In this document: positions 2,945 to 30,009 of the stretch, one piece after another | Position numbering within the stretch: the first letter of the stretch is position 1 | How the letters are laid out: every line of letters begins with the position of its first letter | Sequence record: NC_025447.1 | Direction: 5' to 3' (one strand) | Source: Escherichia phage 121Q | DNA: 64,000 nucleotides | Program-made: the position numbers and the translations under genes | The notes under the pieces: model-generated | The model's input: only the letters and a program-made list of their open reading frames with translations | Databases searched by the model: none | What the model was told of the DNA's origin: nothing

Positions 2945-3781
2945 TTGATTATGTCATTAGAAAAAATAATCATTTCTGAATTCCGAAAGTATATCATGGA
3001 TTGTGATAGAGATGTGCAGCGTAAGTTCAATGAGTACCTTGACAAATATCCGTATTTGATGTTTAATCCGTTTGAAACTGATGATGATTTATATCTTGGT
3101 TTTTACATAGGATTTACTCAACGAATTCTTCATAAAGATGAAATGAAACAATCTGAGATTTGGGTAGAAACTGACTCATCAGAGTCTAATGTTTTTTATC
3201 TTTATACATATTATGCCGAAATTGTTAGAGATACGACACCTGATGGTTGTCTATTTATACAATCGTCTGATATTGAAAGAATATATATCGAACCTGTATC
3301 TTTAGATATGGTTGCCCAGCTTCCAACTATCCAACAGTTAGGTGCAGACGAATTAACTTATTCTGTATTTGAATATCTAGGTAGAGATGATTTGACTCAA
3401 GAAATTGATAAAATGGTTTCTAAATATACTTCATCACTTATTTCAAATGGTAAACTTAAATTAGAATTAATTTTTGAAGATACTAGTATTAATCCAGTAA
3501 GAGGGGTAACAATTGGAAAAGTTACCATACGTGTTGTTTACGATAATGAAGTATTAGGATATATTTCAAAACGTGGACATGATTTATGTATAATTAGTAC
3601 ATTCGTTGTTTCTCGTAAAAAATGGAATGATTTAATGCAAAAAATCGTGGACGGTAGTAAAATTCGTGATATAATATGTAATGACATGGTAATTATTAAT
3701 CCTGATGTTGACTGTGATGTATATTTTCCAGTTCCTGGATTTACACGAGAAAACTTTAGTAAATTGAAGGATAAGAAATGA
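2945..3781 (+). CDS. hypothetical protein
   Basis: ORF track; 278 aa; co-directional tight packing. Confidence 0.5.
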   Translation: MIMSLEKIIISEFRKYIMDCDRDVQRKFNEYLDKYPYLMFNPFETDDDLYLGFYIGFTQRILHKDEMKQSEIWVETDSSESNVFYLYTYYAEIVRDTTPDGCLFIQSSDIERIYIEPVSLDMVAQLPTIQQLGADELTYSVFEYLGRDDLTQEIDKMVSKYTSSLISNGKLKLELIFEDTSINPVRGVTIGKVTIRVVYDNEVLGYISKRGHDLCIISTFVVSRKKWNDLMQKIVDGSKIRDIICNDMVIINPDVDCDVYFPVPGFTRENFSKLKDKK

Positions 3782-4068
3782 AAATTTTAGAAGTCTTGCT
3801 AGAAAAAGATGCATCTGGTACTCTTTATGTTGGTAATGAGTTCAGTCCAGATCCAATTGATATGTTACAGAGAATCCAAACACTGACTCAAAACATCTCG
3901 GTTAAAAAACCGTTTCAGAAAGAATTGGAAATCTTTTGTGATAAAGATATTGAACAGCATGATAATGTGATTTCAGATATTAAAAGTCTATTGACAAAAA
4001 ATGGTTATGTAGAGTATAATCCTCCTATCGTAATCGTTATTCCAGACTTCATGAAAGGAACAATTTAA
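3778..4068 (+). CDS. hypothetical protein
   Basis: ORF track; ATGA overlap with upstream gene. Confidence 0.4.
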   Translation: MKILEVLLEKDASGTLYVGNEFSPDPIDMLQRIQTLTQNISVKKPFQKELEIFCDKDIEQHDNVISDIKSLLTKNGYVEYNPPIVIVIPDFMKGTI

Positions 4069-4337
4069 TGACTAAAGAAGAAATGAAATCTCGCTTAAGC
4101 GAACTGAAGAAAGAACGTAAACTAGTACGTTTAGACTGGGATATCCTTAACAGGAAAGATGAGCAATCATATGCTAACTGGAGTTCTGATAAAGTACGAA
4201 ATGACCGTTCTAAAGAAGATGCAAAGCAATTCATGGCATTATCGAAGCGACTATCATCTTTGAACAGTGAAATTACTGGCCTTCAGAAAGAGATTATTTC
4301 CATTCTTAAAGCGGAGATTGAATCACTCTATGAATAA
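4068..4337 (+). CDS. hypothetical protein (Lys/Glu-rich, coiled-coil-like)
   Basis: ORF track. Confidence 0.4.
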   Translation: MTKEEMKSRLSELKKERKLVRLDWDILNRKDEQSYANWSSDKVRNDRSKEDAKQFMALSKRLSSLNSEITGLQKEIISILKAEIESLYE

Positions 4338-8659: not shown

Positions 8660-8995
<336 letters not shown>

Positions 8996-8996
8996 A

Positions 8997-9179
8997 ATGA
9001 CACACGAAGAATGGATGTACAAACAGCATAAAGAACATGACTGCTTTGGGAATGGTATTCGTCAGGTACATTATGATATTCTCAAAGATATAAATTTATT
9101 CATAAAATATGTTTTGGATGAAAATAAACATTGGTTTATATATGAGATTGCATATAGAAACTCAAATAAACAAAAATAA
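8997..9179 (+). CDS. small protein, MTHEEW family
   Basis: Product MTHEEWMYKQ...; track ORF 8979-9179 trimmed to the family ATG. Confidence 0.4.
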   Translation: MTHEEWMYKQHKEHDCFGNGIRQVHYDILKDINLFIKYVLDENKHWFIYEIAYRNSNKQK

Positions 9180-9193
9180 ATAAGGAATATATT

Positions 9194-9412
9194 ATGGAAA
9201 CAACGTTATTTGAAGTTATTCAAGCATTAAAAACTGGTGATGACATTCAAGTATTGCTACATGGTTATCGTTTAAAAGGCACTGTGGTTTTAGTTAATGA
9301 CACAACGTTAGTTATTGCCGAAACAAATCCATATGATAGTAATCAAGTTGCTAATATCCATATTGATATTAAAAGCATTATTGGTGTAGGCGTAAATAAA
9401 AATCAAGAATAA
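9194..9412 (+). CDS. hypothetical protein
   Basis: ORF track; AAGGAA RBS-like upstream. Confidence 0.4.
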   Translation: METTLFEVIQALKTGDDIQVLLHGYRLKGTVVLVNDTTLVIAETNPYDSNQVANIHIDIKSIIGVGVNKNQE

Positions 9413-9490
9413 CAAATGTTTTTGAAAAAAACCAGAAAATGAATGATTTTTTTGGACAACTCAAAAATATATGATATAATAATTAGTACA

Positions 9491-9580
<90 letters not shown>

Positions 9581-9584
9581 ATAT

Positions 9585-9680
<96 letters not shown>

Positions 9681-9689
9681 CTAAAAACC

Positions 9690-9854
9690 ATGACGCATGA
9701 AGAATGGATGAATGATATTAATTTTAGATATTCGGGTATCGGTAGTTGGCGAAAATATCATTGGGAAATTATTTCAGACCCAGCAGAATACGATAAACTT
9801 ATAAACCATGAAGTATATCCGTGGTTCTTTATTGAAATAATGGTACGAATATGA
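9690..9854 (+). CDS. small protein, MTHEEW family
   Basis: 54-codon ORF MTHEEWMNDINFRYSGIGSW...; stop overlaps next ATG (ATGA). Confidence 0.45.
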   Translation: MTHEEWMNDINFRYSGIGSWRKYHWEIISDPAEYDKLINHEVYPWFFIEIMVRI

Positions 9855-10011
9855 CGCATGAAGAATGGATGAATGACATTAATTTTAGATATTCGGGTAT
9901 CGGTAAATGGCTAAAGTATCATTGGGAATTCATTTCAGAGCCACATATGTATGATAAACTTATCAACGATCCAGCATATGAAATGTACTTAATTGAACTA
10001 CTGGTACGAAT

Positions 10012-10015
<4 letters not shown>
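9851..10015 (+). CDS. small protein, MTHEEW family
   Basis: 54-codon ORF MTHEEWMNDINFRYSGIGKW...; ATGA overlaps at both ends. Confidence 0.45.
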
Positions 10016-10595
<580 letters not shown>

Positions 10596-10599
<4 letters not shown>

Positions 10600-10627
10600 C
10601 TAAATAATTCAGTACTGAGGATATTAA
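10596..10627 (+). promoter_or_regulatory. sigma70-like promoter variant (TTGACT ... TATTAAT)
   Basis: Same TTGACTAAATAxTTCAGTACTG core as neighbouring promoters. Confidence 0.4.
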
Positions 10628-10656
10628 TATGTTTAAAGATGAACGTCCAGATTTGT

Positions 10657-10694
<38 letters not shown>

Positions 10695-10699
10695 GAATT

Positions 10700-11040
10700 C
10701 CACAATCAGACGTATATGGTGTAAGCTACGTCGATGCAATCCAGAACAAGATCTCTGGTACTCTAGGAAGTGGTGAATGTTAACCTAGACGGGTTTGATA
10801 ATTGGACGATAGGCAATTATTACTTGACTAGCAGGTTGAAACTAGAGGTGACAGTCCTTCACCAAACTGGAAAACCGGATGGACTTTTATTTAAAAGGGT
10901 AAGGCGTGGAAATATGTTTACAGAAGTTGCTTTTAGTAGCCTGTACGCCCCACGACAAGGTAGCCGAAAGGTAAGTTAAAACGGGTGGTTATAAAGCTGA
11001 ATTAACAGCGGCGTTTAAAAGCGTCACCATCCATTTTTTT
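10700..11040 (+). ncRNA. candidate structured non-coding RNA (unclassified)
   Basis: About 340 nt with no ORF, GC-richer than flanks, just downstream of a consensus promoter; GNRA-type hairpins (e.g. CCGAAAGG); ends in a T-run. Confidence 0.25.
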
Positions 11041-11056
11041 AATTAAAGTTGGCGAT

Positions 11057-11809
<753 letters not shown>

Positions 11810-11826
11810 TTCACATGATATAGGGA

Positions 11827-12088
<262 letters not shown>

Positions 12089-12096
12089 GAATCTTC

Positions 12097-12498
12097 ATGA
12101 AAAAGAATGACTTGATCAAAATGCTCCAAGAGATTGACGGCAATCCAGAGATTGTTATTTGGAATGGCTATGTCGATGATTATATGAACATCGAAAAAGG
12201 CTTGACTAAAATCACACTAGTCAAAGAAACTGAACAGTTCCTTCTGAACGCATTAGAGCATGAATGGTGCGAACGTAACAAGACATTCGACATTCCAGAA
12301 GACCAACGAACTAAGATTGCAGAACGTGCTAAAGAACTTCATAAGAAGCGTGAATACGATTTCCAGAACCCATATGTTACTGAAGAAGAATTCAATCGCT
12401 GGTACGGAAAAAGAAAGTTGACAAAGTATGTTCTTTCACCTAAACTACGTGGTAAGACTTCTCTTGGTGTATTCAATGCATCTGACTTAGATTACTAA
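12097..12498 (+). CDS. hypothetical protein (paralog of 13138-13353)
   Basis: ORF track; N-terminus MKKNDLIKMLQEIDGNPEIVIW resembles MKAKDLISILQKNPEADILIH. Confidence 0.45.
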   Translation: MKKNDLIKMLQEIDGNPEIVIWNGYVDDYMNIEKGLTKITLVKETEQFLLNALEHEWCERNKTFDIPEDQRTKIAERAKELHKKREYDFQNPYVTEEEFNRWYGKRKLTKYVLSPKLRGKTSLGVFNASDLDY

Positions 12499-12508
12499 GG
12501 AAAACAAA

Positions 12509-12829
12509 ATGATGTGGTATTCAAATGTACCGTGTGAACCTAAATATATTCAGATTTCACATAATGCACTGAAAGCGTTCTGTGATAATTGCAGTACTAA
12601 AGATTATCACTTCGAAGACTTCAGAACGTTGATTTATGACCATCACTGTCAGCCAGCAACCAAAGATGGTATGTTTGTAATTGAACAATTCTTTCATGGT
12701 AAGGTATTGCAAATTGTTGCTGATTATCTGAAAGCAATGGGATATATTATCAAAGATGATTATCTTGATTTAGAAGGTGAATGCATTGTTGATGGTTATG
12801 ATGGTGTACTGATGAATTGGACATGGTGA
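12509..12829 (+). CDS. hypothetical protein
   Basis: ORF track. Confidence 0.45.
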   Translation: MMWYSNVPCEPKYIQISHNALKAFCDNCSTKDYHFEDFRTLIYDHHCQPATKDGMFVIEQFFHGKVLQIVADYLKAMGYIIKDDYLDLEGECIVDGYDGVLMNWTW

Positions 12830-12833
12830 TGAA

Positions 12834-13136
12834 ATGATTGCAACAATGATGATTGTACTTATCCCAATAGTACTAGTAATTCTAGTGACTTCATATGGTG
12901 CAACCACAACTATTGAAGATCTAAAAACACATTACGCTATCGTCTTTAGTGAAGCACATGAAGACTTTGGTACAGTACTGACCGATAAGACTTATATTGC
13001 AACTAAATGTAAGTACTACCGATTCTGGGAACGTTCTGACAAATACCACTACAGAGATGAGAAAGGCGTGAATCAGTACTTAGACGTACTGGATGCATTC
13101 TTGAAACCTTACTATACAGTAACCGAGGTAAAATAA
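12834..13136 (+). CDS. hypothetical protein with N-terminal transmembrane segment
   Basis: ORF track; hydrophobic N-terminus. Confidence 0.4.
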   Translation: MIATMMIVLIPIVLVILVTSYGATTTIEDLKTHYAIVFSEAHEDFGTVLTDKTYIATKCKYYRFWERSDKYHYRDEKGVNQYLDVLDAFLKPYYTVTEVK

Positions 13137-13137
13137 C

Positions 13138-13353
13138 GTGAAAGCTAAAGATTTGATTTCAATTTTACAGAAAAACCCAGAAGCAGATATTCTTATTCAT
13201 GCTTCGCCTTATGATGACTATGCGATTGGTAGTTGCGAAACTGCTCATTCATATCAAGCAGGGGACACCGCTGTTGAAGAGTCTGGTGAAGATTTTTCGG
13301 AATCATTTGATGAAGATGGAAAACTCTTAGTACCAGTCATCATTCTCTCATAA
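13138..13353 (+). CDS. hypothetical protein (paralog of 12097-12498)
   Basis: ORF track; likely GTG start. Confidence 0.4.
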   Translation: MKAKDLISILQKNPEADILIHASPYDDYAIGSCETAHSYQAGDTAVEESGEDFSESFDEDGKLLVPVIILS

Positions 13354-13360
13354 AAGAACG

Positions 13361-13393
<33 letters not shown>

Positions 13394-13442
13394 CAGGGGA
13401 GGTTGTAATTCCCGATTCAGTAGCTTTTTAAGCTGTTCCGTG

Positions 13443-13543
<101 letters not shown>

Positions 13544-13562
13544 AGAGGTACTTCGAGTATGC

Positions 13563-13629
<67 letters not shown>

Positions 13630-13704
13630 TAATTGACATAACTTTGAATGGAGTGTATTATGTTCCAAGAAGAAAACTGGGGTTTTTAACATAACGGGGA
13701 ATGT

Positions 13705-13750
<46 letters not shown>

Positions 13751-13755
13751 GTGCT

Positions 13756-13794
<39 letters not shown>

Positions 13795-13795
13795 A

Positions 13796-13837
<42 letters not shown>

Positions 13838-13838
13838 G

Positions 13839-13889
<51 letters not shown>

Positions 13890-13895
13890 TAATTA

Positions 13896-13968
13896 GCCGA
13901 CTTAGCTCAGTAGGTAGAGCGTTCCTCTTGTAAGGGAAATGTCACCAGTTCAATTCCGGTAGTCGGCA
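13896..13968 (+). tRNA. tRNA-Thr (anticodon TGT) candidate
   Basis: Acceptor GCCGACT/AGTCGGC, D-arm GCTC-AGTAGGTAG-AGCG, anticodon loop CTTGTAA, T-loop TTCAATT; one T-stem mismatch. Confidence 0.65.
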
Positions 13969-13980
13969 CAAAATAAAGGT

Positions 13981-24747: not shown

Positions 24748-25245
24748 ATGACAACTGTTTATATTGATAAACGATTAAATTTATTGATTACCGATTCTAG
24801 AGTTACGTCAACTATACCACGAAACTTATTTGGTTTTTTCCCACTAAGACCAAAATATCAATATGGAGTTGTTAATCAAAAAACTTTATATGTACATGAC
24901 CGTTTATTCAGTGCTAGTGGGTCAGTAAGTGAAATTGATAAAGTACTGGATTGGTTAATTAATAAAGTACCAGTTATACCTGACAGAAAGTTAAGTTGCC
25001 ATTGTGTGCTTCTTTCTAAAGATTATGTTATTCATATGATTTTAACTAAAGGAAAGTTTATTAAAAAACTTGAATATCTACATGAAGACTACACTTTCTT
25101 TATGGGAAGTGGTGGAGAATACATGGTAGATGCTGCTATTCATGAAGAACATACAACTTTATATGATAAAGTGTTTAGTACTTTCATGGATGTGCATAAC
25201 CATGATTGCTTCACAGATGATAATATTAATGTATATCGATTTTGA
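24748..25245 (+). CDS. hypothetical protein
   Basis: ORF track. Confidence 0.45.
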   Translation: MTTVYIDKRLNLLITDSRVTSTIPRNLFGFFPLRPKYQYGVVNQKTLYVHDRLFSASGSVSEIDKVLDWLINKVPVIPDRKLSCHCVLLSKDYVIHMILTKGKFIKKLEYLHEDYTFFMGSGGEYMVDAAIHEEHTTLYDKVFSTFMDVHNHDCFTDDNINVYRF

Positions 25246-25266
25246 TTTCGTCATTAGGAGATGTAA

Positions 25267-26232
25267 GTGAAAAAGCTTGATTTAAATACAATTGCCGAAG
25301 AAGTTCTGGATGAATGTTTTTCTAATGAAGAAGTCAACACACTAGAAGCCTTAGATTTCGTTGAAGATAAAGATGAAAATGAAGGTAAAGTACAAAGCAG
25401 TTTCAAATATAATATTACACTTAAGCGACCACCAAATGTTTCCAATGAAGATCTAATTCGTGATATTCAAGCTGGTATCAATGTAAAGAAAAACACTGAA
25501 CTGTTAGTTCGTTACAATTATGGACTTATTATTGATGTAGCAAGTAAATGTACTTGTTATATCCCATTTGAAGATAAGATTTCATATGGTGTTGAGGGGT
25601 TCATGAGAGCACTAAAAACCTTTGATCTTAATAAGAATGTGAAGTTCATTACCTATGCTTCTTCTAGTATTTACATGACAGTTTATAACGAAAGTTCTGA
25701 CGCTAACTATATGGTACACTTCCCACGTTATATGAGTGTTCATAAGATCAAAGTAAAAAGATTCTGTCAGGAATATATGCGTAAACATGGTGTTCGCCCA
25801 ACTCCTGAAATAATCTCAGAGGGTACTGGGATTGAGATTCAGCATGTTAATAACTGTTTGTTATTTCAAAGCGAATACACTTCTCTGGATGCACCATTAG
25901 ACGGTGTTACCGATGGTACACTAGGTGACATTATTCATTCACCTGCTTCTGATTTTAACCTCAATGTTGATAGTATTCGTGCACCTTTACGTTATGCTAT
26001 CAATGAACTGACTAACGAATTGAGTACTAAAGAACGTGAGATTATCCAGCGTGTTCATGGTCTAGGTGAATATGAACCTGAAACGCTTCGTGAGATTGCT
26101 GATAATGGTTTTGTTGATGATAATGGAAAATATGTTAAATCCCGTTCATCAATACATCGAAAGTACAGTGAAGCTATGCAAAAGCTTAAGAAGCTAGTAC
26201 TTGCAAAAGGGTACGAATACGAAGATTTCTAA
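25267..26232 (+). CDS. sigma-70 family RNA polymerase sigma factor-like protein
   Basis: GTG start after AGGAG; region-2-like LVRYNYGLIIDVASK...GVEGFMRALKTFD...KFITYASSSIY and region-4-like C-terminus; motif match by eye only. Confidence 0.55.
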   Translation: MKKLDLNTIAEEVLDECFSNEEVNTLEALDFVEDKDENEGKVQSSFKYNITLKRPPNVSNEDLIRDIQAGINVKKNTELLVRYNYGLIIDVASKCTCYIPFEDKISYGVEGFMRALKTFDLNKNVKFITYASSSIYMTVYNESSDANYMVHFPRYMSVHKIKVKRFCQEYMRKHGVRPTPEIISEGTGIEIQHVNNCLLFQSEYTSLDAPLDGVTDGTLGDIIHSPASDFNLNVDSIRAPLRYAINELTNELSTKEREIIQRVHGLGEYEPETLREIADNGFVDDNGKYVKSRSSIHRKYSEAMQKLKKLVLAKGYEYEDF

Positions 26233-26238
26233 AGAAAA

Positions 26239-26266
26239 AAGGTTGGCTTATGCCAACCTTTTTTTA
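26239..26266 (+). terminator. rho-independent terminator
   Basis: AAGGTTGGC-TTAT-GCCAACCTT followed by TTTTTT. Confidence 0.6.
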
Positions 26267-26289
26267 TGGGATGAAGTAAAAGTTTGTGA

Positions 26290-26880
26290 TATAATTATCT
26301 TGTACAATTCTGTTGGCATGATATTCATGTACCTGATCCACTCGAAAACGTAGAGGGCAGTTGAGCAGTCCGACAGTGCGAACAGCAAAAGAAACCCGTT
26401 AGATGTGGGCATAGTTTGAACCCCTCACGGCAATGCGGCTGTATAAAGAACCACGTTAGGATAGCTGGTGGTTCCTTGATAGACATATAAGGATAACACC
26501 TTACGAATTATCTAAGGGAGAGTTATCAAATTTTGTACAGGAAAGTTGCGTCCAGAATTTGAGTACTCACATTAAGTATTTGATTGCATAGATACTTAAT
26601 GAAGATACACTATGTTTAAAAGTGTAGACCGTCATATGAAACTGAAGTAGAGAGAAACAGGATGACCCGCTTTCGCACTCGTTATGAGTAATCTTCAATG
26701 CAATAGCTCTGATACCATCAGCGTCAAATTTCCCTCCTTGTGGGGGGAAGAAAAATCCCTTCCTCAAATCCCGTCAATATTAAAAGTCCTTGACAGTTAT
26801 TAATCATTCGCGTAGAATACGTAGTATTAGAAGCGAACAGACATCTCGAAGAGATGGATGATTAACCATTAAGGAATATC
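26290..26880 (+). ncRNA. candidate large structured non-coding RNA (unclassified)
   Basis: About 590 nt without a plausible ORF in a densely coding genome; GC-richer than flanks; TGTGATATAAT promoter-like at 26285-26296. Confidence 0.25.
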
Positions 26881-26882
26881 CA

Positions 26883-27092
26883 ATGAATTCAGTAATCTTT
26901 TTAGTAGTCGCTTTCTCTGTTAATTCCGGTATACAAATAACCCCAATGAATTCCATGAATCAATGCATAGCAGTACGTGATAGTACATACGAACAAGTAA
27001 ACAAAGATATTTGGATTACAGTTAATAAAGAACAAATGTGGTGTTACAATAGTAATACTAACACAAAGCTTATTGTAGGACAAACTCAATGA
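26883..27092 (+). CDS. hypothetical protein
   Basis: ORF track. Confidence 0.4.
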   Translation: MNSVIFLVVAFSVNSGIQITPMNSMNQCIAVRDSTYEQVNKDIWITVNKEQMWCYNSNTNTKLIVGQTQ

Positions 27093-27319
27093 GTTATGGT
27101 GTTCGTTTTGAGATTCGTTCTATTGTCATCGATGCAGAGAAACAAGTATCGTTAGATGGTGATATACGTGAAATTTATCTATCATGTATCCGTGCGAAAT
27201 CTGAAGCAGATGCCTTAGTACAAATGTATAGTTTTAACTTTTCAAATGGATTCTATTTGGTACGAGTTGTTGAAGTTAAAAAAGTAATTCTTGGTTGTTG
27301 CATAGAAGGAATAATGTAA
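27089..27319 (+). CDS. hypothetical protein
   Basis: ORF track; ATGA overlap. Confidence 0.4.
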   Translation: MSYGVRFEIRSIVIDAEKQVSLDGDIREIYLSCIRAKSEADALVQMYSFNFSNGFYLVRVVEVKKVILGCCIEGIM

Positions 27320-28108
27320 ATGAGCACTATCGATGAACTGATTCAACGGAATTCAAAATATTACCAACCATCAGAAATTGTGGATAACATTACTAAATCT
27401 GAGTTTGGACCGAACACACGCAAACTCATTCATGTAATGTCACGTGATGGCTTTAAATGTGATTGTTGTGGTGAATCAAATGTAGTATTCACTTTACACA
27501 AGCACAGTACTAAAGAACGTTATAAATTCAGACCTTATGTACTTAAAGGGAAACGCCTTGTACGCATGACGTTAGACCATAATGTACTGGACTGTCTTCA
27601 GGGCGGTAATGATAAAGAGAACATGACTGCATTGTGTGAAGATTGTAACGCATTACGCCAGCATAAGTTTGCTGAGTACAGTGAGTTTAAACACTGGTAT
27701 CATAACGCGGATCGTTCAATCGAGCCTGACGTTAACTACTGCTTCATTGAGTACATTAAGAATGCCAAAGATACATACATTCTTAAATCAATGTCACCTA
27801 TTACCGTGTTTCCTGAGAACCTATTCACTACATTAAAGAATAGTTTTATTGTCGGTGATATTGATGCATTCAAGTATTTTGACAAAGGTGCAAAACATTT
27901 TGAAATTCAATGTCTTAGTACTGCACTATGTAAACTCATTAAAATTTACATAAAAGAGTATTTGGGTATTGACAATGTACGTGTACCAGAGTATACTTTT
28001 TCTATTGAATTCGATTGTGAATCAATTAAAGAGTTTGGAATTCTTTTCAATAAACAAATAGAACTTGCAATTCAAAACGAAATCAAGTACTATACTACTA
28101 ACATTTAA
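27320..28108 (+). CDS. HNH endonuclease (putative homing endonuclease)
   Basis: CDCCG ... TLDHNVLDCLQGGNDKENMTALCEDCNALRQHK matches the HNH catalytic motif. Confidence 0.7.
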   Translation: MSTIDELIQRNSKYYQPSEIVDNITKSEFGPNTRKLIHVMSRDGFKCDCCGESNVVFTLHKHSTKERYKFRPYVLKGKRLVRMTLDHNVLDCLQGGNDKENMTALCEDCNALRQHKFAEYSEFKHWYHNADRSIEPDVNYCFIEYIKNAKDTYILKSMSPITVFPENLFTTLKNSFIVGDIDAFKYFDKGAKHFEIQCLSTALCKLIKIYIKEYLGIDNVRVPEYTFSIEFDCESIKEFGILFNKQIELAIQNEIKYYTTNI

Positions 28109-28123
28109 TCAGAGGAAATTATC

Positions 28124-28306
28124 ATGCAAATTATCATTCTTATCGTTGGCATCATGCTGGGTGTTTACGGTCACTCCTGGATGAACGAGAAGTTTCCTAA
28201 TACGCGTCCTGAGTATTGCAGTACTAATGTATTCCAGAATGGTGAGAAACCAAAGGAAAGTATTGGTAAAAAGCTGGACAAAGTACTTGATGTGATCAAT
28301 GAATAA
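28124..28306 (+). CDS. small membrane protein
   Basis: ORF track; hydrophobic N-terminus. Confidence 0.35.
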   Translation: MQIIILIVGIMLGVYGHSWMNEKFPNTRPEYCSTNVFQNGEKPKESIGKKLDKVLDVINE

Positions 28307-28517
28307 GGGCCATAAAATGTTTAAACCGAATTCCAATGTTGGAAAGAAAGTTCAATTACTTGAGGATGTATCCACTCTGAGTGGAATTTTCCCAAGAGGT
28401 CACATCATGACTATTATTGCCGAAACATCCCGTGGTTGGGACTTGGAAGATGCTGATGGTAATCGCATCCTTGAAGCTGGCTTCTATGGTCATCGTGAAT
28501 ATAAAATTATCGATTAA
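28299..28517 (+). CDS. hypothetical protein
   Basis: ORF track. Confidence 0.4.
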   Translation: MNKGHKMFKPNSNVGKKVQLLEDVSTLSGIFPRGHIMTIIAETSRGWDLEDADGNRILEAGFYGHREYKIID

Positions 28518-28614
28518 GGATATAAAATGATGTTAGAGGCTATCGTTGGTATTGTTAGTTTTAGTCATCTGTGTTGCTTGCTTTGGGTATATGATGATTT
28601 TTGGTGATTAATAC

Positions 28615-28642
28615 TTGACAGAAGATATCAGTACTGTATAAT
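28615..28642 (+). promoter_or_regulatory. sigma70-like early promoter (TTGACA - 16 nt - TATAAT)
   Basis: Spacer contains CAGTACTG directly upstream of -10. Confidence 0.5.
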
Positions 28643-28687
28643 GTTTATATCAAACGAAATCCACTTTAACAAATGATAGGAAATATT

Positions 28688-28966
28688 ATGTCTTTTTCTA
28701 AAGAAGAACGTGACCTTATTAAAAAAGCAATTTGGTTTTATGCTAATGAAGGGAAGTGCGATGAAGAAAAAGCACGTGAACTGTGTAATATCCTTGAGAA
28801 GAAACAAGAACTGAAAGTGTATCGTATCCGTGATTTGGATGAAGGGGATCGTATTGTCCTAGCTGAAACAAAAGAAGAAGCAGAACAAATCTTCACTGAT
28901 AAAAACGAAAATCCACATTGGATGGAAGAAGTCTGTGATGTTAAAAAAGGTACTTATATCGATTGA
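28688..28966 (+). CDS. hypothetical protein
   Basis: ATG at 28688; track ORF 28673-28966. Confidence 0.45.
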   Translation: MSFSKEERDLIKKAIWFYANEGKCDEEKARELCNILEKKQELKVYRIRDLDEGDRIVLAETKEEAEQIFTDKNENPHWMEEVCDVKKGTYID

Positions 28967-28991
28967 CAGTACTGAATAATAGCAGTATAAT
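28963..28991 (+). promoter_or_regulatory. sigma70-like early promoter (TTGACA - 17 nt - TATAAT)
   Basis: Contains CAGTACTG; upstream of ORF 29085. Confidence 0.5.
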
Positions 28992-29084
28992 GTTTATATC
29001 AAAGGGAATGCAGTGAAAGGAAAGACAGCATAATCGTACTCGTCACTGCGTTCCCGCCCTTTTAAATTAAATGAGGAATTAACT

Positions 29085-29393
29085 ATGTTTCAAACTAACA
29101 CTCAAGGTTTTGTAATCATCGATTTGAATCAAAACAGCGGTTATTGGATGAAACCTACTGACGCATGTATGCAGTTTGATTTCTTAGGTTACAGAATTAG
29201 TGTAAGTACTGGTGCTTCTGTACTGAGAGGTGGTTGTATCGTTGAACATCTGGTAACTGATCCAGAAGGTCGTGAGTATGAAATCGCAGGTTCAGTACAA
29301 GATGCCATTATGTTTGTATGTCAGCGTGAAATGAATGGTTCGAACTCAAATGCACTGACTCATGCTCTTTCTCAAGAAGTGGAGGTTCGTTAA
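29085..29393 (+). CDS. hypothetical protein
   Basis: ORF track; GAGGAA RBS-like upstream. Confidence 0.45.
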   Translation: MFQTNTQGFVIIDLNQNSGYWMKPTDACMQFDFLGYRISVSTGASVLRGGCIVEHLVTDPEGREYEIAGSVQDAIMFVCQREMNGSNSNALTHALSQEVEVR

Positions 29394-29644
29394 TGAAATA
29401 CATTGTAGCAGTACTCGTCGCATTTTTACTCACTGCATGTGATGCTTCAACCAAAGAACGCACAAGTGATTTTGAACTCCCTACTGAATTAAAAGAAGCA
29501 GGATGTAAGATTTATCGTATGCAACAGGAAGGTGCTGGTGCAACGTTGTATACAGTTTATTGTCCTAATGCAAACACCAGTACTGGATACACTAGCGGAA
29601 AAACACGAATCAACACTTCAGTGATTAATGGAGTACAACAATGA
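29393..29644 (+). CDS. putative lipoprotein
   Basis: N-terminus MKYIVAVLVAFLLTAC (lipobox-like LTAC). Confidence 0.45.
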   Translation: MKYIVAVLVAFLLTACDASTKERTSDFELPTELKEAGCKIYRMQQEGAGATLYTVYCPNANTSTGYTSGKTRINTSVINGVQQ

Positions 29645-30009
29645 GCCTTGATACAACCCGTGCAACAGATTTATTCACTCGTCTGAATGATGAAGAATAT
29701 CTTGCTGAAATAAAGTACAAGCTTGAAAAACTGGCTCGAAGTGCTGAAGTAATTGAAGTTAAAGGTCATTTACCAATGGATCAATTCCATACGTTCAAAG
29801 AAGATATGGTTTATTATCCAAATGAAATTTGGATTGAGTGGGAACATTGGACTAACAAAACTCTACGCATTGAAGGTTATTGTGTGAATTATGAATCTGA
29901 ACCTGGTGATGTTACAAAAACTCTCTCCATTTGGTGTACAAAAACACATGAACTAGTTGAGGTGAATTTGAATTATATGAAAGGTTTCCGTTGGGGTGAT
30001 ATTCAATGA
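29641..30009 (+). CDS. hypothetical protein
   Basis: ORF track. Confidence 0.45.
   Translation: MSLDTTRATDLFTRLNDEEYLAEIKYKLEKLARSAEVIEVKGHLPMDQFHTFKEDMVYYPNEIWIEWEHWTNKTLRIEGYCVNYESEPGDVTKTLSIWCTKTHELVEVNLNYMKGFRWGDIQ

Follow-up and report, generated by a model that had tools for sequence, protein, structure and literature searches.

How can a stand-alone nuclease gene be kept at one place by most members of a group of closely related phages and be missing from others? The question is raised by a 64,000-nucleotide stretch of Escherichia phage 121Q (sequence record NC_025447.1; hereafter the window, numbered from its first letter), in which an open reading frame (ORF) on the + strand at 27320–28108 encodes a predicted HNH endonuclease. 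The modelled protein is a two-domain stand-alone endonuclease, composed of an N-terminal zinc-finger HNH nuclease and a C-terminal helical domain, with nuclease activity inferred from this architecture. We lean slightly towards reading the gene as that of a selfish, homing-type free-standing endonuclease, with a life style like that of the Mob and Seg genes of T4; by analogy with these, a target site, its cleavage and biased inheritance would be expected. This class fits because of the fold, the constrained active site, the stand-alone position, the sporadic distribution, the dimorphism at the junction and the presence of paralogues in related genera.

The gene and the two domains of its product are laid out as follows.

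27320–28108, + strand: HNH endonuclease ORF, 262 amino acids plus stop (ORF map, PHROG 35175, family motif, model and fold)
27458–27664, + strand: HNH (beta-beta-alpha-metal) core with CCCC zinc finger (C47, C50, D86–H87, N97, N101, C106, C109, N110, H115)
27707–28105, + strand: C-terminal all-helical domain, residues ~130–262, its helices modelled with a predicted local distance difference test score (pLDDT) above 90

The sequence motif reads C47-D-C-C50, T84-L-D86-H87, G95-G-N97, N101 and C106-E-D-C109-N110. The D-H dyad, D86–H87 (nucleotides 27575–27580), aligns with the lDH of Cas9 and Gme HNH proteins, and the asparagine pattern of the helix (G95-G-N97, N101, N110, then H115) fits H-N-N/H. 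The two CxxC pairs, C47/C50 and C106/C109, make up a zinc finger of the McrA/HNH_5 subtype. Across a 43-sequence family alignment, C47, C50, H87, G95, N101, C106, C109 and N110 are invariant, and D86 is conserved in at least 90% of members.

A word-indexed homologue search gave only five close relatives; the family was built from an exhaustive profile search of 1.84 billion proteins, which showed it to be small (28 representatives at E ≤ 1e-10). At the family level, Pfam HNH_5 is matched by 34 of the 43 members and HNH by 28 of the 43 (best 5e-14). The match to PHROG 35175, ‘HNH endonuclease’, is end to end (1.8e-188), and PHROG HNH families overall range from that value to 1e-3. Searched against the PDB, the family profile found the HNH domains of a Cas9 and of Gme HNH (E about 7e-5). 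A single-sequence phmmer search of the PDB returned a lone L33 match, which was discarded as spurious. With the 43-sequence alignment, AlphaFold2 produced a model of pLDDT 90.5 that has the beta-beta-alpha-metal fold; with four close homologues alone, pLDDT was 50 and the model unusable. Structure matches in BFVD are phage HNH endonucleases, and the top one, the slurp01 orthologue, is already named ‘HNH endonuclease’. Near-identical phages already have it under this label in several of their GenBank and UniProt records. The C-terminal helical domain (~130 residues) is, from the model, most likely a DNA-binding or specificity module.

The gene is a stand-alone ORF between ORF69 and ORF60, which are conserved in every relative, HNH-bearing or HNH-less, and no Rfam intron family was found. 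The original prediction, a free-standing HNH endonuclease, is borne out by the HNH fold, by intact catalytic and zinc ligands and by the lack of an intron or intein context. The ratio of non-synonymous to synonymous substitution rates (dN/dS) is 0.04–0.055 for the nuclease domain, 0.22–0.43 for the C-terminal domain and 0.41–0.46 for ORF76, the ORF directly upstream. The low value for the nuclease domain suggests that the enzyme is functional, rather than decaying, in most phages.

Gene-bearing and gene-less alleles

Over 25200–29000, identity reaches 99.6% with Escherichia phages vB_EcoM_G17 and Sharanji, and 97–99% with phAPEC6, PBECO4 and others. Judged by these relatives, the source phage is an Asteriusvirus, a Rak2-like jumbo myovirus of E. 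coli, and not T4-type in the strict sense, as the original prediction implied. The local map and the segments that vary among its relatives are listed here.

25267–26232, + strand: sigma-70-like factor gene, at the left end of the local map
26235–26268, + strand: intrinsic terminator hairpin of the sigma-factor gene (sequence; palindrome self-match at 26235–26264; sub-threshold matches to terminator-type sRNAs)
26331–26787, + strand: structured RNA element (the ‘long non-coding region’), outside the cassette
26790–26818, + strand: sigma-70-like promoter TTGACA-N17-TAGAAT, upstream of ORF69–ORF76–HNH (motif scan)
26883–27092, + strand: ORF69, conserved small early gene, left flank
27062–28104, no strand assigned: segment without alignable counterpart in EC22.5-2, JNE01 and Turkey5 (blastn breakpoints 27061 and 28100–28105; junction alignments)
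27089–27319, + strand: ORF76, 76 amino acids, left half of the ~1.03-kb cassette (PHROG 28392, unknown function)
27332–27859, + strand: codons 5–180, the whole nuclease domain, cleanly deleted in frame in phage A4
27969–27997, + strand: sigma-70-like promoter TTGACA-N17-TATACT inside the HNH ORF (codons G-I-D-N-V-R-V-P-E-Y; 11/12 match)
28124–28306, + strand: ORF60, conserved small gene, right flank, always directly downstream of the HNH gene

The start of ORF76 overlaps the stop of ORF69 (ATGA), and the cassette genes are translationally coupled to ORF69. The HNH start is the first ATG past the stop of the preceding ORF (taaATG), served by the ribosome-binding site GAAGGA.

Of 35 Asteriusvirus-type records searched by tblastn, 29 have the HNH gene complete or almost complete, one has lost the nuclease domain from it and five are without it. 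The gene is therefore not universal at this position. The whole ~1.03-kb cassette, ORF76 plus HNH, is missing from the locus in EC22.5-2, ECO103 4-12-1 (grouped with EC22.5-2 on the same record length), JNE01 and Turkey5, and no HNH homologue was found by tblastn anywhere in the EJP2 record. In blastn, EC22.5-2 aligns in two blocks, 25000–27061 (97.9%) and 28100–30000 (94%), separated by 86 unaligned bases. Its breakpoints recur in JNE01 and Turkey5, and they place the ends of the indel at ~27062–27092 on the left and 28100–28108 on the right. Phage A4 has kept an ORF76 homologue and an 88-residue ORF, A4_184, that consists of MSTI followed by residues 181–264 of a WPEC5-type protein (92% identity); its deletion is bounded by short repeats. 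ORF76 is restricted to Asteriusvirus, and all 30 records that hold it also hold the HNH gene or the A4 remnant.

Three records need separate mention. The gene is split by frameshifts in Salmonella phage SD-1_S14 (locus 3067–3824) and in CMSTMSU (locus 3437–4229). These frameshifts are probably sequencing or assembly errors and the copies were not counted as pseudogenes, because neighbouring genes in those records are also fragmented. In Escherichia phage Ecwhy_1 (MH791411.1, 2–565), the gene runs off the start of the linear record, leaving residues 1–188 visible at 92% identity. The fEgEco12 paper lists Gp519, a sigma factor, and the HNH endonucleases Gp520 and Gp570 as absent from Ecwhy_1 (PMC13070987); should Gp520 or Gp570 be this HNH gene, its reported absence could be an artefact of the point chosen to open the record.

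The presence of the cassette goes together with the sequence next to it. The 3′ half of ORF69 is dimorphic, with one form in occupied and remnant alleles and another in HNH-less alleles. At the junction itself the split is strict. All five occupied or remnant alleles compared share an ORF69 3′ end that runs into ORF76 through the ATGA overlap, whereas all three empty alleles have the other 3′ end, TAATAG followed by a promoter. Such strict dimorphism is expected if an occupied allele must be immune, and the sequences make ORF69 a candidate location of the target or immunity polymorphism.

Recombination has acted at the same place. Compared with the window in 100-nucleotide windows, EC22.5-2 is 98–100% identical up to 26870 and again from ~28255, while 26871–28254 holds a different allele, 93–99% JNE01-like on the left. 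The synonymous divergence (dS) of ORF69 between the window and EC22.5-2 is about 1.9, in phages that are otherwise near-identical. The foreign patch and this dS value therefore indicate allelic exchange by recombination exactly at the site. In divergent comparisons ORF69 identity is 77–81%, against 93–100% for downstream genes.

Two types of the gene are found within Asteriusvirus, that of the window and that of WPEC5. Between them, ORF76 and the nuclease half are 87–99% identical (dS 0.15–0.29), with 91–99% nucleotide identity and a dS of 0.29 for the nuclease part, whereas the C-terminal half has 61% nucleotide identity, 47% amino acid identity and a dS of about 1.06. This contrast places a recombination point or a domain boundary near residue 170–180, where the A4 deletion also ends. 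Read from these alignments, the history of the gene is modular, with a conserved nuclease half and a divergent C-terminal half. Covariation between the C-terminal types of ORF69 and of the HNH protein, as in an arms race between target and specificity, was also considered; the pattern is broken by SD1_S14 and the idea was dropped.

On the homing reading, the cassette would be transcribed from host-type sigma-70 promoters between the early genes ORF69 and ORF60. In a mixed infection, the cassette-less allele would be nicked or cleaved close to its ORF69/ORF60 junction. With the cassette-bearing genome as the template for repair, the cassette would then be copied across, or inheritance of the region would at least be biased. 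The target, if any, most likely lies in the dimorphic 3′ end of ORF69 or in the spacer that precedes ORF60. The locus would be an old one, in the late stages of the life cycle of a homing gene. Most phages would keep the gene under purifying selection, A4 would have lost the nuclease domain, and JNE01, Turkey5 and EC22.5-2/ECO103 4-12-1 would have lost almost everything, the near-total-loss allele having been moved between backgrounds by recombination.

The embedded promoter and gene loss

What has happened at the gene-less sites is indicated by the promoter inside the HNH ORF. Its form recurs at the same codons in UE-S1, in WPEC5, in the truncated A4 ORF and in a 60%-identical metagenomic homologue, and it has been retained despite the saturated synonymous divergence of the C-terminal half. 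The CBB and BF homologues have no embedded promoter. The predicted promoter presumably drives ORF60 and the genes downstream of it. In the gene-less alleles, the 77–82-bp spacer from the ORF69 stop to the ORF60 start holds a TTGACA-N17-TATACT or TATAAT promoter. Because the spacer carries the promoter form that is otherwise embedded in the HNH gene, these alleles are read as products of loss. The EC22.5-2 spacer aligns to 27969–28012 over 36 of 44 nucleotides, its best place in the 64-kb window, and none of 1000 dinucleotide shuffles reaches the score. The JNE01 spacer aligns at the same place, where 130 of 1000 shuffles reach its score, so that alone it is not significant. The argument from spacer homology is weakened by an extended consensus common to the phage’s promoters.

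The 3′ part of the gene carries the putative promoter of the downstream genes, which may be why every deletion derivative keeps it. The pattern is suggestive of a long-term resident, eroded or lost a few times, whose promoter-bearing piece was always kept. It is possible, if somewhat doubtful, that the HNH gene persists for this very reason, as a selfish gene that resists loss by harbouring, within its codons, the promoter that serves the operon downstream.

A metagenomic relative extends this history. Its order is sigma factor, extra ORFs, RNA element, ORF69 homologue, three unrelated ORFs, HNH (60% amino acid identity) and ORF60 homologue. The left neighbours of the HNH gene thus differ, and ORF60 is still directly downstream, therefore the HNH–ORF60 adjacency is old. 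ORF76 shows no detectable relation to the positionally equivalent 70-residue ORF of this relative, whose extra ORFs are without a Pfam match.

The suggestion that the gene may mark an insertion site is not upheld by these comparisons, since the gene-less alleles resemble deletion derivatives and the gene is at the same place in the 60%-identical relative. The original idea of a mobile homing endonuclease fares better in part. Sporadic presence and gene-less alleles agree with it, as do the CBB homologues, which have been described as free-standing homing endonucleases (PMC5259590); what the locus records is long residence and occasional loss rather than a demonstrated invasion.

Several observations weigh against homing. 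The gene-less sites look suggestively like deletion relics and not virgin sites, and among the HNH-less alleles there is no convincing case of a naive, never-occupied site. Most genomes have the gene, and it adjoins ORF60 even in the 60%-identical relative, so that its distribution is explained by vertical descent and a few deletions, with no need of homing. The patch imported into EC22.5-2 is the empty allele, opposite to the direction that homing predicts and at best ambiguous. Scans of IMG/VR for the occupied and empty junction sequences found nothing, and a metagenome scan with ORF69 added two more occupied alleles and no others. At the protein level, the HNH motif that had been called clear from the sequence is so for the family and not for the single sequence, whose Pfam scores lie under the gathering thresholds (HNH, 15.7 against 21.4 bits; HNH_5, 15.1 against 27.5). 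The C-terminal domain has no Pfam match, no fold match and no recognisable DNA-binding fold.

One alternative is that the gene is simply accessory, located in a hyper-plastic early region, subject to random deletions and homologous recombination and with no role in its own spread; the nuclease could then serve recombination or repair, or be catalytically irrelevant. The patchwork of the neighbourhood agrees with this, with the sigma gene at 43–88% identity beside the values for ORF69 and the downstream genes given above, as do the deletion-like appearance of the HNH-less alleles, the short repeats around the A4 deletion and the different left neighbours in the metagenomic relative. Yet the catalytic and zinc ligands are all invariant and strongly constrained, and the dimorphism between alleles is concentrated exactly at the junction. 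Related jumbo phages also carry several paralogues of the family, placed at different sites in the manner typical of mobile nuclease genes; two were detected in each of CBB (CBB_528 and CBB_535) and BF (BF_0523 and BF_0529). We regard a plain accessory gene as improbable.

A somewhat stronger contender, though still an unlikely one, is a resident nuclease of benefit to the phage, an HNH nickase or endonuclease directed against the DNA of co-infecting relatives (interference competition, marker exclusion) or of the host. It would be expressed early, kept by selection on the phage and dispensable in some lineages. Two features fit this: purifying selection acts strongly on the nuclease domain (dN/dS about 0.05), and the gene has long resided at one locus. 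It also sits in an early region with sigma-70 promoters, in line with the description of the CBB early region (PMC5259590). A jumbo-phage HNH endonuclease that nicks a rival’s polymerase gene provides a precedent (PMC13282480), and Gme HNH (4H9D), the nearest relative among small solved structures, has been characterised as a nicking enzyme. However, at least five viable phages are without the nuclease, no self-protection mechanism is evident beyond the junction polymorphism, and a PADLOC scan matched no defence-system family. The mechanism also overlaps with that of homing, from which it is inseparable by sequence. The homing-type reading remains plausible but unproven, for a gene of a known kind.

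The upstream structured RNA and neighbouring features

The original prediction had the gene following a long non-coding region, seen as a sign of insertion. ORF69 and ORF76 lie between the two, and the region is, by its covariation, a structured RNA gene of ~450 nucleotides with at least 12 helices rather than the scar of an insertion. HNH-bearing and HNH-less phages share it at 99.8% identity. For this reason, and for lack of an immunity polymorphism, the RNA gene was also rejected as a target of the nuclease.

The RNA lies within an ORF-free stretch of ~600 bp, 3′ of the sigma-factor terminator. Its core is closed by a helix that joins ~26356 to ~26715, and its 5′ domain spans 26361–26524. 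The segment 26375–26870 of the window is 92–100% identical even between phages whose flanking genes are at 45–75%. By blastn, three to five diverged paralogues per genome occur in 60 jumbo-phage records of nine genera, almost all of them unannotated. The paralogues are about 70% identical to each other and lie in intergenic gaps of about 600 bp; each is 92–100% conserved across phages, with neighbouring genes far more diverged. The carriers include Asteriusvirus, Mimasvirus (CBB, GAP32, XbC2), Eneladusvirus (BF, fHe-Yen9 and Erwinia phages) and Salmonella jumbo phages of the Munch/7t3 type.

A 12-sequence alignment has 68 consensus pairs, 34 of which show compensatory double changes. Of its cells, 97.5% are paired, against 38–49% when the partners are slid, and none of 500 shuffles reaches the observed covariation. 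Frequent G-U pairs point to the + strand as the folded RNA strand. None of the copies matches an Rfam 15 family, and the literature searched yielded no description of the RNA. With a covariance model of the 5′ domain, a single copy is detected in the window (26361–26524, 187 bits), as is an independent one in a metagenome (E 4e-30). In IMG/VR, an invariant 20-mer of the RNA occurs on contigs of 350–378 kb and on two shorter ones (174 and 33 kb).

The RNA could in principle be a partner of the HNH protein, which would act with it or on it in an RNA-guided or RNA-scaffolded manner, on the model of IscB and its omega (HEARO) RNA. The RNA gene is ~0.5 kb upstream on the same strand, the genera with HNH-family homologues are, in tallies of organism names, the genera with the RNA, and in NCBIfam the protein matches nothing but the IscB HNH segment (E 3.7e-4). 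That match (NF040563), however, covers only residues 78–126, a generic HNH core, at 19.7 bits against a cutoff of 175. The protein, at 262 residues and with an all-helical C-terminal half, is without a RuvC or bridge-helix part, and neither HEARO nor any other Rfam family matches even at E ≤ 10. Most of the three to five RNA copies per genome are far from any HNH gene, the CBB and BF HNH paralogues being 3.5–7 kb from the nearest copy. The RNA is also unchanged in HNH-less phages, and a promoter and two ORFs separate it from the gene. We consider such a partnership very improbable.

Other features of the window were noted. The sigma-70-like factor gene at 25267–26232 is hypervariable, with 43–88% identity in 100-nucleotide windows to WPEC5, JNE01 and A4; by contrast, the adjoining RNA gene is at 92–100%, and genes further right are at 93–100% to WPEC5. 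This variability suggests allelic replacement or diversifying selection. To its left, a 165-residue ORF (24748–25245, + strand) weakly matches, in PHROG, an HslV-family peptidase (phrog_1040, E 4.9e-6), beside its own family of unknown function. A cluster of six tRNAs (8682–13969, + strand) comprises Gly-TCC, Ser-TGA, Ser-ACT, Met-CAT, Asn-GTT and Thr-TGT. The Ser tRNA with anticodon ACT, called by ARAGORN at 11464–11555, is unusual, and the Gly tRNA is unlisted by Rfam at the gathering threshold. Finally, 53109–62961 contains a series of 270–1500-bp stretches without + strand ORFs of at least 55 residues. Genes on the minus strand or additional non-coding elements could lie there; the RNA covariance model has no match within 53109–62961.

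The gene itself, as one more uncharacterised stand-alone HNH endonuclease, matters little. Of greater use is the natural series at its locus, which runs from the intact gene through a deleted nuclease domain to a promoter-only relic. The near-isogenic pair of HNH-bearing and HNH-less phages, G17 or Sharanji against EC22.5-2, would make homing or interference competition directly testable in Rak2-like jumbo coliphages. The promoter conserved inside the coding sequence hints at how such genes become hard to delete. The neighbouring structured RNA, multi-copy and unclassified, is the more interesting object and deserves a study of its own.

Comparison with known systems

Solved HNH domains (Cas9, IscB, Gme 4H9D, EcoKMcrA, phage GVE2 and PtuB) have the same beta-beta-alpha-metal fold and D-H…N…N arrangement as the protein described here, and its CCCC zinc site is common to the McrA, Gme and GVE2 types. 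Unlike in IscB, the HNH domain is not surrounded by a split RuvC, bridge helix or PLMP domain, and no omega RNA is directly upstream. A terminase-associated HNH protein of the HK97 gp74 type was considered and rejected, as the neighbours within 3 kb or more are the sigma-70-like factor, the RNA gene and small early ORFs of unknown function, not terminase and portal genes.

The free-standing homing endonucleases of T4-type phages, MobA–E of the HNH class and SegA–G of the GIY-YIG class, spread by ‘intronless homing’. The gene resembles them as a small stand-alone nuclease gene between conserved genes, sporadic at a fixed site in close relatives, with allele-specific polymorphism beside the insertion and a nuclease joined to a presumed DNA-binding domain. 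It differs in its host, an Asteriusvirus, and in gene-less alleles that resemble deletion relics; no kinship in sequence beyond the HNH core was sought or seen.

Among jumbo phages, PhiPA3 gp210 is an intron-encoded HNH endonuclease that nicks the RNA polymerase gene of a rival phage (reviewed in PMC13282480). Both are HNH nucleases of jumbo phages with a proposed role in competition among related co-infecting phages. In contrast to gp210, encoded in an intron of a nucleus-forming phiKZ-like phage, the gene here is free-standing and belongs to an unrelated jumbo lineage.

The nearest comparison is with the homologues of other Rak2-like phages (CBB_535 and CBB_528 of CBB, BF_0529 and BF_0523 of BF, and those of Cronobacter phage GAP32 and Yersinia phages fHe-Yen9-03/04). 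These lie at other loci with other neighbours, number two paralogues per genome where Asteriusvirus has one copy, and differ further in having neither an embedded promoter nor an ORF76 partner. They belong to the same family at 27–42% identity, often over both domains. Like the gene of the window, they are stand-alone and in early-type regions, and they share the CxxC…DH…N…CxxCN core followed by an (F)AEYxEFKxWY motif.

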